The position numbers and the translations under genes are program-made. This document shows, piece by piece, positions 30,837 through 56,466 of a stretch of DNA of 64,000 nt; positions within the stretch are counted from its first letter, which is position 1, and the number at the start of each line of letters is the position of its first letter. A model generated the notes under the pieces. The model was not told the origin of the DNA. It saw only the letters and a list, made by a program, of their open reading frames with translations, and searched no databases. This DNA comes from a virus, in the IMG/VR virus record IMGVR_UViG_3300045988_128835; one strand, given 5' to 3'.

Positions 30837-30989
30837 AAAAAATACTTTTTCAACAAAAGTACGACATTCATAAATTAATTAGATTTAAAATAAAACAATA
30901 TGAATTAAAATAAAAACCCGATACGTTAAAATCGCATCGGGCCTGGTATTGGGAAAAATAGGTTCAGATCTTGGGTAAAGATTCGAGCC

Positions 30990-32560
30990 AATTTTTAACA
31001 TATTTAGGTAATTATATACAACTTTACACCACAAATATAGGAAATTGTTTTTTTATATATAAATAATAATTCCTATATTTGTGTCATGAGATTAGTTGAA
31101 CAACATATAATCAAACAAAGTTCTGTTTATTACAATGAACTTTATGATCTATTGCATAAGTGTAAAAACTTATACAATAAAGGGTTATATGTTGTTAGAC
31201 AGTATTATTTTCAATACAAGGATGATAATACTGTAAAGTATAAGTACCTAAACTACTATTCTCTTGAAAAGAAGTTAAGAACAGAAAATGATGTTGACTA
31301 TCGTGCTTTACCAGCACCGGTTGCTCAACAAGTATTGATGATGGTAGATAGAAACTTTAAATCTTTCTTCAATCTCTTTAATAAAAAGAATAGAGGTGAG
31401 TATTCTGAGGAAGTAAGAATGCCAAGGTATCTCAACAAGGGTGGTTTGTTTCCTGCTGTTTTTGCAACAAATGCTTTTTCTCAAAAATGGATAAAACAAG
31501 GCATTGTTAAGTTACCAAAACAGTTTTCCTTTACAACAAGAACTAACAAGCAAAATATTCAACAACTTAGATTCATTCCTAAGAATGGGTATATTGTTCT
31601 TGAAATAGTTTACAATAAGAAGGAAAAGAATCTTATGTCCGATAATGGGAACTATCTTGGCATCGACATAGGATTGGATAATTTAGCATCTTGTGTTTCA
31701 AACACCGGTTCTTGTTTTATCATCAATGGTAGACCACTAAAGTCTATTAACCAATATTATAACAAAAGGTTAGCATTCTTAAAATCTAAGTTAAAAGACA
31801 ATAAACAGATTTCAAAACAAATAAGGTCATTAACCGACAAAAGGAATAACAAGATCAAAGACTATCTGCATAAAGCAAGTAGAATATTGGTTAATCATGT
31901 AGTTTCCAATGGTATTAATACGATCATAATCGGTCATAACAAGTGCTGGAAACAAGAGATCAATATTGGAAAGCGTAATAATCAGAACTTTGTATCTATT
32001 CCTTTTAATTCGTTTATCAGTATGATATCGTATAAAGCTACATTAGAAGGTATTAATGTTAAGATCGTTGAAGAATCTTATACTTCAAAATGTAGCTTTT
32101 TAGATAATGAACGGATTTGCAAACATGAATCTTACAAAGGAAGAAGGATTAAACGAGGATTGTTTAAAACCTCGTTTGGTAAGATCATTAATGCTGATAT
32201 CAATGGTGCTTTTAACATCATTAGAAAATCAGAAAAAGAATCCTTTGATGTAACGATGTTACCAGAAGGTAGAGGGTTTTGGTGTAACCCGGTACGAATT
32301 TCCGTATAAATGTGTATTACTTTACACTTTTGGTGTAAAGTGGTATATAATCACCCATTTAGGGTCTTTGTCTATTCTATCTTTCAGTTCATGCAATGCT
32401 GAGTCCATAACCGTATTCGGTACGCCAATCAACTCTCCTATTAAATACAATGGGGTTTTATTCGATTTAGATTCGTGTGCTATATTCATGTCAAAAAAAA
32501 GTTATGTGAAACAAACCGGCCACGGGTATTCTATTGCCCGCCGACCGGTATAATATTTTT
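30990..32560 (+). mobile_element. IS200/IS605-family (IS1341-type, tnpB-only) insertion element on the opposite strand to the surrounding phage genes; approximate boundaries
   Basis: tnpB ORF flanked by subterminal hairpins: left 31033-31083 (CACAAATATAGGAAATT / AATTCCTATATTTGTG) and right ~32320-32345 (CTTTACAC ttttg GTGTAAAG); strand is opposite to its neighbours. Confidence 0.5.
31086..32309 (+). CDS. tnpB: TnpB-like RNA-guided nuclease (IS605 OrfB family, RuvC-like)
   Basis: RuvC-I GIDIGLDN, TSKC...C Cys motif, RuvC-III DINGAFNII (DxNAAxNI-like); 407 aa is a typical length. Confidence 0.75.
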   Translation: MRLVEQHIIKQSSVYYNELYDLLHKCKNLYNKGLYVVRQYYFQYKDDNTVKYKYLNYYSLEKKLRTENDVDYRALPAPVAQQVLMMVDRNFKSFFNLFNKKNRGEYSEEVRMPRYLNKGGLFPAVFATNAFSQKWIKQGIVKLPKQFSFTTRTNKQNIQQLRFIPKNGYIVLEIVYNKKEKNLMSDNGNYLGIDIGLDNLASCVSNTGSCFIINGRPLKSINQYYNKRLAFLKSKLKDNKQISKQIRSLTDKRNNKIKDYLHKASRILVNHVVSNGINTIIIGHNKCWKQEINIGKRNNQNFVSIPFNSFISMISYKATLEGINVKIVEESYTSKCSFLDNERICKHESYKGRRIKRGLFKTSFGKIINADINGAFNIIRKSEKESFDVTMLPEGRGFWCNPVRISV

Positions 32561-56335: not shown

Positions 56336-56466
56336 AATGAGGGAAAACCTGAAGTTAGTGTAAACAATCAAATAATGGATTTGAACCATTGACACATATC
56401 TTAAAAGGATATTGCTCTACCATCTGAGCTAAATTCGAAGTAACTAACCCCATCACCACTCATTAG
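56336..56466 (-). ncRNA. Y-RNA-like RNA 1: a tRNA-like body (D arm GCTC-AGATGGTA-GAGC, anticodon arm with UUU, T arm AATGG-TTCAAAT-CCATT) with no canonical acceptor stem, held in a long stem (GTTAGT/ACTAAC and AATGAG/CTCATT)
   Basis: Folded by hand from the reverse complement; the 5' leader carries the GTGGTGATGG motif. Confidence 0.5.

Follow-up and report, generated by a model that had tools for sequence, protein, structure and literature searches.

The 64,000-nt stretch of viral DNA analysed here (IMG/VR virus record IMGVR_UViG_3300045988_128835; hereafter the window) contains, at positions 31007–32355, what is probably a non-autonomous transposon resident in gut phages of the crAss-like epsilon group, in which a TnpB nuclease gene and its predicted omega/reRNA scaffold are enclosed by terminal inverted repeats (TIRs) of the IS1595 type, and which would be moved in trans and engage in homing. 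The anatomy of the element (Table 1) is very well supported and is the part that we hold with the greatest confidence. The element encodes no transposase of its own and is therefore non-autonomous; moreover, neither a second copy nor a solo end nor an IS1595 transposase was found in the 64-kb window. The window is ~93% identical to csAssE-Sib (OR575929), an epsilon-group crAss-like phage of the human gut (PMC11054128).

The limits of the element were set by the inverted repeat (I1), by a copy with the same ends in csAssE-Sib and by alleles in which the insertion site is empty. In csAssE-Sib nothing is inserted at the syntenic site, and ~35 kb from it lies a sequence that is 92% identical to window positions 31007–32361. 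An earlier inspection of the bare DNA sequence, here called the sequence-only reading, had proposed an insertion at 30990–32560; the comparison with related phages that have the site empty and the element elsewhere bore out the insertion and fixed its ends, while the proposed extent overshot the mobile unit on both sides, bases 32356–32560 being phage DNA with a minus-strand gene. A protein-seeded scan of IMG/VR returned 579 relatives, including one contig with three copies, and scans of IMG/VR and metagenomes (human-gut viral and metagenome contigs) yielded 137 full-length copies with both flanks, representing 66 distinct flank pairs and having the same ends as the window element. The element starts with GG and is bounded by TIRs of 28–33 nt (GGTRATTATATAC...) that are conserved in all copies; the outermost 29 nt at each end are nearly invariant, making the inverted repeat GGTRATTATATACNACTTTACACCA (72 unique copies). 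Direct 8-bp repeats of the flanking DNA were present in 24 of the 66 flank pairs (21 perfect and 3 at 7/8), among which no direct flank repeat of any other length was found. We recovered single-octamer empty alleles for 14 flank pairs (~12 distinct sites), and because these alleles hold one octamer only, the duplications must arise on insertion; the insertions in contigs L037 and L043, which are 7 nt apart, likewise show duplication on insertion.

These ends do not fit the family to which the sequence-only reading had assigned the element, IS200/IS605 (IS1341-type), in which a Y1 TnpA acting in trans would insert single-stranded DNA 3′ of a short motif, with subterminal hairpins and without duplication. 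Such an origin would account for an element with tnpB only (tnpA is indeed absent from it, as the sequence-only reading had stated), for a palindrome near each end and for a window copy that lacks a duplication and has TTTA adjoining its left end. It is at odds with the 28–33-nt TIRs, with the 8-bp duplications at 24 sites, checked by empty alleles, and with ends that are common to elements of a DDE transposase, and the relatives of the gene follow serine recombinases, not Y1 transposases. In addition, the conserved flank motif is found at −11 to −8 and not abutting the element (−4 to −1). IS200/IS605 and IS607 elements are both defined without inverted repeats and without duplications (PMC13565253; PMC6188088, abstract). 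The two palindromes are real, the one after the stop codon being the tip of a 16-bp helix (32311–32349), but they are not subterminal hairpins of the IS200/IS605 kind, and we consider this assignment scarcely credible.

The left palindrome (I3; arms 31030–31056 and 31057–31083, 27 nt, 81% complementary) is near-perfect in the lineage of the window and csAssE-Sib only, and is poorly conserved beyond it. Across copies, the left leader keeps the outer CACAAAT/ATTTGTG, an AT-rich centre and TAyATTTG, whereas the middle of the stem is variable. The pattern TAnnTTTG may represent a Bacteroidota −7 promoter box. A sigma-70 promoter scan, whose model is ill-suited to Bacteroidota, gave no signal above chance, and nothing relevant came from Rfam, whose one match at the left palindrome, to mir-302, was below threshold.

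A repeat scan of viral contigs showed that the same ends bound not only the TnpB elements (1.35 kb) but also short derivatives and larger elements of 2.4–5.5 kb. The larger elements have a gene for a 307-aa protein with matches to Pfam DDE_Tnp_IS1595 (2.8e-42), NCBIfam transpos_IS1595 (7.2e-57) and, weakly, the IS1595 Zn-ribbon; this protein has 237 relatives in IMG/VR. What the TnpB and the transposase elements have in common is confined to the terminal 23–33 nt, at 92–96% identity: the left TIR and the left end of the transposase elements L122 and L143 share 92% identity across 26 nt, the right TIR is 96% identical over 25 nt to the end of such elements, and the shared ends were seen in L122, L143, L174 and ~40 further transposase elements. 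Duplications of 8 bp are likewise found at the transposase elements (18 perfect cases), and both kinds of element occur together in contigs _104829, _090989 and _062721; in the complete csAssE-Sib genome, the TnpB element is present and an IS1595-type transposase is not encoded. Since ends and duplication length are shared, the TnpB element is likely to be moved in trans by an IS1595-type transposase. A composite element with both TnpB and a DDE transposase was not present among the loci fetched; at two loci with both genes, the TnpBs are distant relatives and lie outside the element. The transposase elements (L122 1973–5482, L143 9431–12260, L174 6144–11007, L282–L343) are common in crAss-like and other viral contigs, and their cargo open reading frames (ORFs) are variable (e.g., OMP beta-barrel-like or DUF5640-like) and always located left of the transposase gene. 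The ends of the ISNwi1 group, which in ISfinder would read ggnnatTAT, would match GGTGATTAT.

The protein encoded by tnpB passed the cut-offs of several TnpB-related families (NCBIfam guided_TnpB NF040570, 180 bits against a cut-off of 100, E = 8.7e-53; Pfam OrfB_IS605 PF01385, 79 bits against 30.5, E = 4.3e-22; Pfam Cas12f1-like_TNB PF07282, 46.9 bits against 26.3, E = 3e-12) and matched PHROG 506, annotated as ‘transposase’ (4.9e-49). The motifs from which the sequence-only reading had recognized a 407-aa TnpB are all present in the translation (GIDIG, residues 192–196; TSKC, 333–336; DINGAFNII, 371–379), and the OrfB_IS605 and guided_TnpB matches provide the profile support that it had called for. 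It had also described the gene as the sole long plus-strand ORF in the 19–56-kb region. Within this block of minus-strand genes no other long plus-strand ORF is credible, since the two further ones that reach 150 aa are nested in long minus-strand ORFs or overlap with them.

Among 23 homologues with 50–93% identity, D194 (RuvC-I), G283, E330 (together with E329) and D371 (RuvC-III) are invariant. G283, within IIIGHNK, occupies the canonical position of the RuvC-II glutamate and aligns with the E of ‘qmEDL’ in AsCas12f, and a conserved glutamate is found 6–7 residues ahead of the first zinc-finger Cys position. This ‘alternative E’ arrangement is known from one lineage of IS607 TnpBs and from Fanzors (PMC10711439), and as judged from the alignment, the RuvC D-E-D triad is kept with its glutamate at the alternative position. 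A phmmer search of the PDB with the single sequence gave no match, and a profile gave the AsCas12f alignment. The AlphaFold2 model computed from the 23 homologues had a mean pLDDT of 86.7, and its best Foldseek neighbours were Cas12f, the TnpBs of ISFba1 and ISDra2 and a mimivirus Fanzor2 (E values of 1e-12 to 1e-16). Across copies, entropy was ~0.5 at codon position 3 vs ~0.1 at positions 1–2; this approximately fivefold excess of third-position variation indicates purifying selection on TnpB.

The feature that had led the sequence-only reading to call nuclease activity uncertain, a zinc-finger site with only two Cys, was correctly observed: C336 and C346 are left, and C346 is not conserved. 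However, the C4 zinc finger is absent throughout the clade, the IS607-borne members included, so its loss is, by comparison of homologues, a trait of the clade that stands beside a conserved triad, and is no sign of decay. One could regard the gene as a decaying, inactive relic and its copies as hitch-hiking fossils, given that a CxxC...CxxC motif is lacking and a glycine stands at the canonical RuvC-II position, but both traits are clade-wide and occur with invariant D194, E330 and D371, and the glutamate is placed as in the ‘Ealt’ arrangement, which is that of active IS607 TnpBs and Fanzors (PMC10711439). Purifying selection is strong, all 137 copies have an intact ORF, and a large number of the insertions are both recent and polymorphic. 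We therefore consider a relic highly improbable.

In a search of one genome per bacterial or archaeal species, no relatives with more than 50% identity were found, and the nuclease lineage appears to be viral. The gene of one relative, P0096 (58% identity), directly follows a serine recombinase gene, as do those of at least 28 more distant relatives (25–58% identity range), which is the IS607 layout, and homologues in Helicobacter phages also follow a serine recombinase. The nuclease module therefore seems to stem from IS607-type elements and to have been re-housed between IS1595-type ends; at the level of sequence comparison, the IS607-type ancestry of the lineage is shown. The TnpB of L482, at 60% identity, already has the same right end. 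These relatives, together with the GG at the element start and an IS607-type serine recombinase gene located 2.2 kb from the TnpB element on a crAss-like contig (L016 6517–7050), could also be taken to mean that the element is an IS607-derived solo TnpB moved in trans by a serine recombinase TnpA, with repeats and duplications being incidental. Yet IS607 elements have neither TIRs nor duplications (PMC13565253; PMC6188088, abstract), both of which are regular here, and the ends are of the IS1595 type and not the AAATAATGAC repeats of the IS607-type ends in L484–L487. No serine recombinase is encoded inside the window element, and we judge mobilization of this kind to be very improbable. The phage csAssE-Sib carries a second, unrelated TnpB gene (OR575929 58986–60125; 18% identity according to PMC11054128); both TnpB-family ‘transposases’ of crAssE-Sib have been published, and the element was not analysed (PMC11054128).

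The 3′ end of tnpB is predicted to overlap the guide RNA. Synonymous-site entropy falls to 0.19 at codons 381–400 vs ~0.5 elsewhere, and the last 150 nt of L482 are ~85% identical to the window element, compared with 60% for the proteins. RNAalifold folded 28 copies into five helices within 32242–32349, in which 98.5% of cells are paired and compensatory change occurs at 4 pairs; covariation scored 0.171 vs 0.126 after shuffling (0/500) and at most 0.072 with slid partners. The terminal 16-bp helix (32311–32349) consists of the right inverted repeat paired with an inner inverted copy of itself, and its many G-U pairs make sense for the plus strand only. A covariance model derived from the same copies (R1) gave full-length matches at the 3′ end of ~45 tnpB genes with 36–50% protein identity, all on the gene strand, in cyanobacteria, Firmicutes, Chloroflexota and archaea. 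In a 34-sequence alignment (A4), 35 of the 37 pairs showed compensatory change, 92.7% of cells could pair vs 62.5% after shuffling, and the covariation score was 0.554 vs 0.157 shuffled and at most 0.098 with slid partners; that A4 was fitted to model R1 weighs against these numbers, which are somewhat inflated, although the margin is large. No Rfam family matched the scaffold at gathering or E-value thresholds. By these sequence criteria, a covarying five-helix RNA at the tnpB 3′ end is shown. The sequence-only reading had anticipated an omega RNA overlapping the end of the gene, which holds, but the span that it gave, 32200–32560, was too long, as the scaffold covers approximately 32242–32355 and the guide would begin at 32356. 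By analogy with the architecture of TnpB/omega-RNA systems (PMC10711439, PMC13565253), the guide would be the 16–20 nt past 32355.

Table 1 Features of the TnpB element and its immediate surroundings (positions of the window).
Feature	Position	Strand	Description
Left flank, TAA + CATATTTA	30996–31006	+	W-A motif at −10/−9 from the left end, as at other insertion sites
Whole mobile element	31007–32355	+	1349 bp: TIR, promoter-like leader, tnpB, guide-RNA scaffold, TIR
Left TIR	31007–31039	+	33 nt, starts GGTAATTATATACAACTTTACACCAC..., 85% complementary to 32323–32355 (repeat finder)
Left-end palindrome and AT-rich leader	31030–31083	+	includes TATATTTG at 31074–31081, 5 nt before the ATG
tnpB	31086–32309	+	407 aa, ATG start; RuvC nuclease with relocated RuvC-II glutamate
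Catalytic codons	D194, 31665–31667; E329/E330, 32070–32075; D371, 32196–32198	+	
Predicted omega/reRNA scaffold	32242–32355	+	~115 nt, overlaps the tnpB 3′ end
Scaffold helices	32242–46/32265–69; 32250–54/32258–62; 32274–79/32285–90; 32292–96/32303–07; 32311–26/32334–49	+	
Small DNA-binding-protein gene	32322–32489	−	last 14 codons exchanged for 11 codons from the element right end
Right TIR	32323–32355	+	doubles as the 3′ arm of the terminal RNA helix
Predicted guide segment	32356–32375	+	CATTTAGGGTCTTTGTCTAT, from the phage flank

A target for such a guide exists in the empty allele of the window site, which reads TTTA|TATTTAGGGTCTTTGTCTAT, that is, TTA + T followed by a match to the predicted guide at 19 of 20 positions (empty-allele sequence AACATCTTTATATTTAGGGTCTTTGTCTAT); the guide would thus find a target next to a candidate target-adjacent motif (TAM). 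The unique left flanks have A at −9 in 36/41 cases, A or T at −10 in 39/41, T at −11 in 29/41 and T at −8 in 31/41, and right flanks open with T in 59/61. On the left-end side of the duplication sites, W-A|T, with W-A ahead of the octamer and T as its first base, occurs in 22/24 cases, and the mirror motif is found on the right-end side in 9/24 (Fisher p = 1.8e-4). We had taken T[T/A]A to be purely TnpB-specific and revised this view, since the borders of the transposase elements show W-A|T as well (15/36, or 42%, vs 6% background; p = 1e-9), without asymmetry, leaving only the left/right asymmetry specific to the TnpB elements. We interpret this as a transposase preference for W-A|T at the two staggered cuts, with persistence of TnpB elements almost restricted to sites that have the motif 5′ of the octamer, where a TAM would have to be located for a flank-derived guide to match the empty allele. 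The site statistics thus suggest W-A|T as a candidate TAM, in keeping with the correspondence usually seen between a TAM and the target of the transposase.

These observations suggest the following course of events. An IS1595-type transposase of co-resident or co-infecting elements would move the element in trans and paste it into AT-rich T-N6-A octamers. RNA transcribed across the right end would have its last 16–20 nt copied from the flank, and TnpB with this RNA would recognize element-free alleles, by the W-A(-T) motif and the flank sequence that follows it, in co-infecting phages or after excision. TnpB would cut these empty alleles, and recombinational repair would copy the element in, which amounts to transposon homing; occupied alleles would be immune, the terminal repeat and not the motif preceding the guide match. 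Homing between co-infecting phages is plausible on this sequence evidence, and we give it close to an even chance. Somewhat more speculative is the view of the whole as a natural RNA-guided gene drive of phages, in which an IS607-derived module with a relocated catalytic glutamate, captured between IS1595-type repeats, borrows a DDE transposase to gain new sites, spreads in crAss-like phage populations through the cutting of empty alleles during co-infection and has co-opted its TAM (W-A-T) from the target half-site of the transposase, and in which junctions without duplication, such as that of the window, are favoured for bringing a good TAM beside the guide match. If true, prokaryotes and their viruses would thereby provide a counterpart to the settling of Fanzor1 in eukaryotic DDE transposons.

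Several observations weigh against this picture. The zinc finger is missing from TnpB, and the RNA ends, the nuclease activity, the TAM and the mobilization in trans are all things that we infer. Among the matches listed, most TnpB-bearing contigs are without the transposase. Duplications are lacking in 42/66 flank pairs, so many junctions are shaped by processes beyond simple transposition, among them recombination between copies, deletions at the junction and the addition of TCACC repeats to the right tip; mixed flanks, e.g., a single left flank that is combined with four different right ones, speak for such recombination. Part of the motif signal is due to the target preference of the transposase itself. 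This last point also favours a more modest scenario in which the element is spread by the IS1595-type transposase and by phage recombination, and TnpB and its RNA serve not for homing but for the cutting of competitor or host DNA, for restoration after excision or for gene regulation. The evidence on anatomy is identical under this scenario, homing is only inferred, and cut-and-paste DDE elements gain less from restorative homing (PMC13565253). On the other hand, the guide is local flank by construction, so that the empty allele is the sole perfect target, the asymmetry of 22/24 vs 9/24 is unexplained without a constraint linked to TnpB, and the conserved catalytic residues are contrary to a TldR-type repressor role. 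We regard a non-homing role as unlikely, if the most serious of the competing explanations.

The window copy itself is among those without a target-site duplication, a further point against the proposed course: its left flank ends ...TAACATATTTA and its right flank begins CATTTAGGG..., compared with ...TTTA^TATTTAGGG in the empty allele, so the flanks are contiguous in the empty allele except for the first right-flank base, which is C and not T. This junction fits an insertion after TAA that duplicated CATCTTTA and was followed by an 8-nt deletion, which accounts for the C; recombination between two neighbouring canonical insertions fits as well. The empty allele, which joins 31006 to 32356/7 and reads ...AACAT[C/A]TTTA^TATTTAGGGTC..., was found in at least 118 viral contigs. 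We had considered the empty site of csAssE-Sib as an excision footprint of an ancestral TAACATCTTTAGGG and ruled this out, as 120/120 empty alleles have the same 11-nt middle and none is shorter. The window-type allele is the commonest in the sample, with 19 contigs (the window and 18 near-identical ones). Flank haplotypes are too mosaic for alignment on the left and more uniform among filled alleles on the right. The pattern is compatible with homing (co-conversion) and also with ordinary descent or shared ancestry plus recombination. In the comparison of L003–L019 and L180 with L362–L481, gene content beyond ~600 bp to the left of the site is mosaic even among filled alleles; to the right, filled alleles are 88–99% identical for at least 2 kb and empty alleles drop to 53–80%.

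The insertion altered a small DNA-binding-protein gene (Table 1), whose product ends ...DKDPKYKDVKNWLESLPKI in csAssE-Sib vs ...DKDPKWVIIYHFTPKV in the window. Downstream of this gene, an intrinsic-terminator-like hairpin (12-bp stem, then a T run) is located at 30914–30944 on the minus strand and is now split off by the element. A tRNA-Lys gene (anticodon UUU; 56366–56439, minus strand) was the sole Rfam or ARAGORN match in the window.

Several variants of the junctions and of the element were observed among the copies. The duplication-less junction of L511 shows a 5-nt target loss; the right junctions of L026 and L563 have additional TCACC repeats at the tip, and in L026, L563, L035 and L543 extra partial copies of the right tip (TCACC, TAATCACC, TATAATCACC) lie between element and flank. 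The ‘empty’ allele of L560, present in 12 contigs, still has GGTAATTA of the left end and looks like an excision or deletion footprint. At the hot spot AAAATACTATTCTAATTCTTTTATAATATC (L037, L043, L032, L087), there were at least three independent insertions no more than 7 nt apart. Short derivatives with the same ends range from 51 to 452 bp: the 51-bp element in L161 (2177–2227) is a back-to-back inverted-repeat pair, and those of 272–452 bp (L087 3615–3937, L101 13394–13845, L164 1853–2124) consist of the left end and 88–310 nt of the guide-RNA region, the one in L087 being at the exact site of the full-length copy in L037. The protein P0038 (507 aa), a TnpB relative at 91% identity, has HNH endonuclease domains (PF01844, PF14279), which points to a further nuclease gene, either inserted in tnpB or joined to it by fusion. 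A truncated TnpB of 355 aa (P0031, 90% identical) is recorded at NCBI for Parabacteroides goldsteinii on a 4.3-kb contig and may be a hint to the phage host or phage contamination of the assembly.

Most of what is understood about TnpB and other OMEGA nucleases concerns IS605 and IS607 elements, whose excision leaves no scar, and OMEGA nucleases in cut-and-paste DDE transposons are known almost solely from the eukaryotic Fanzors. The system presented here is compact and abundant and has polymorphic sites in phages of the human gut. With its dozens of allele pairs, filled and empty, its candidate TAM, its guide-RNA scaffold and its partner transposase, a possible benefit of TnpB to a DDE element, homing between co-infecting phages and the co-evolution of a TAM with a DDE target site become testable. 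For the annotation of crAss-like phages, it means that such tnpB genes are not of the IS605 type, and a 407-aa nuclease without a zinc finger combined with a ~115-nt scaffold is of possible interest for genome editing.

TnpB borne by DDE transposons is already known as a kind. Six DDE-associated TnpB branches with inverted terminal repeats, e.g., linked to IS630, have been described, together with solo TnpBs whose ends are nearly identical to those of transposase-bearing elements, implying trans-mobilization; in the same study, branches with a rearranged catalytic site were enriched in viruses, and certain large branches of TnpB were without the zinc finger, having lost it (Altae-Tran et al. 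2023, PMC10691335), so that the finger is no strict hallmark of a TnpB. A 2026 review called the DDE association of prokaryotic TnpB rare and named the families ISL2, IS630 and IS1031 (PMC13565253). The window element resembles these systems in its symmetric inverted ends and in a tnpB 3′ end less than 250 bp from the element end. It differs in its transposase family, IS1595, which is absent from the main text of PMC10691335 and from the list in PMC13565253, in its crAss-like phage carrier, in the lack of a composite form among the loci fetched and in a candidate TAM 5′ of an 8-bp octamer. What is new here is thus the different DDE family, the non-autonomous element, the phage carrier, the IS607 ancestry together with the alternative position of the glutamate, and the link between a candidate TAM and the 8-bp duplication.

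With the ‘Ealt’ TnpBs of IS607 (pro-Fanzor/Fanzor2; Yoon et al. 2023, PMC10711439), the window TnpB shares the glutamate located 6–7 residues before the zinc-finger position and not ~50 residues upstream, relatives that follow a serine recombinase, and a scaffold that overlaps the 3′ end of the gene; unlike them, its RuvC-I motif is D-I-G and not D-P-G, its zinc finger is lost, and the IS607 ends and recombinase are replaced by IS1595-type repeats. ISDra2 and other IS200/IS605 TnpBs (PDB 8EXA, 8H1J) are similar in fold, in a flank-derived guide and in a proposed role in homing or retention, but they belong to Y1 single-strand elements without inverted repeats or duplication, with a TAM that in ISDra2 abuts the left end, a canonical glutamate and an intact zinc finger. 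The IS1595 family with passenger genes (Siguier et al. 2009, as summarized in PMC8101967) has GG ends, inverted repeats of ~25–30 bp and the 8-bp duplications described for the family (PMC8101967); GG-initiated ends are attributed in PMC8101967 to the related eukaryotic Merlin elements. The partner elements have the Zn-ribbon, DDE_Tnp_IS1595 and cargo of this family, whereas the window element lacks a transposase and carries a nuclease and a guide RNA as its cargo. Finally, the arrangement resembles that of Fanzor1, in which a nuclease of IS607 ancestry with a relocated glutamate is housed in inverted-repeat transposons with target duplications and the 5′ duplication has been read as part of the TAM (PMC13565253). 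The system of the window, however, is prokaryotic and viral, its nuclease has 407 aa and none of the Fanzor1 insertions, and the likeness is one of convergent arrangement and not of membership.

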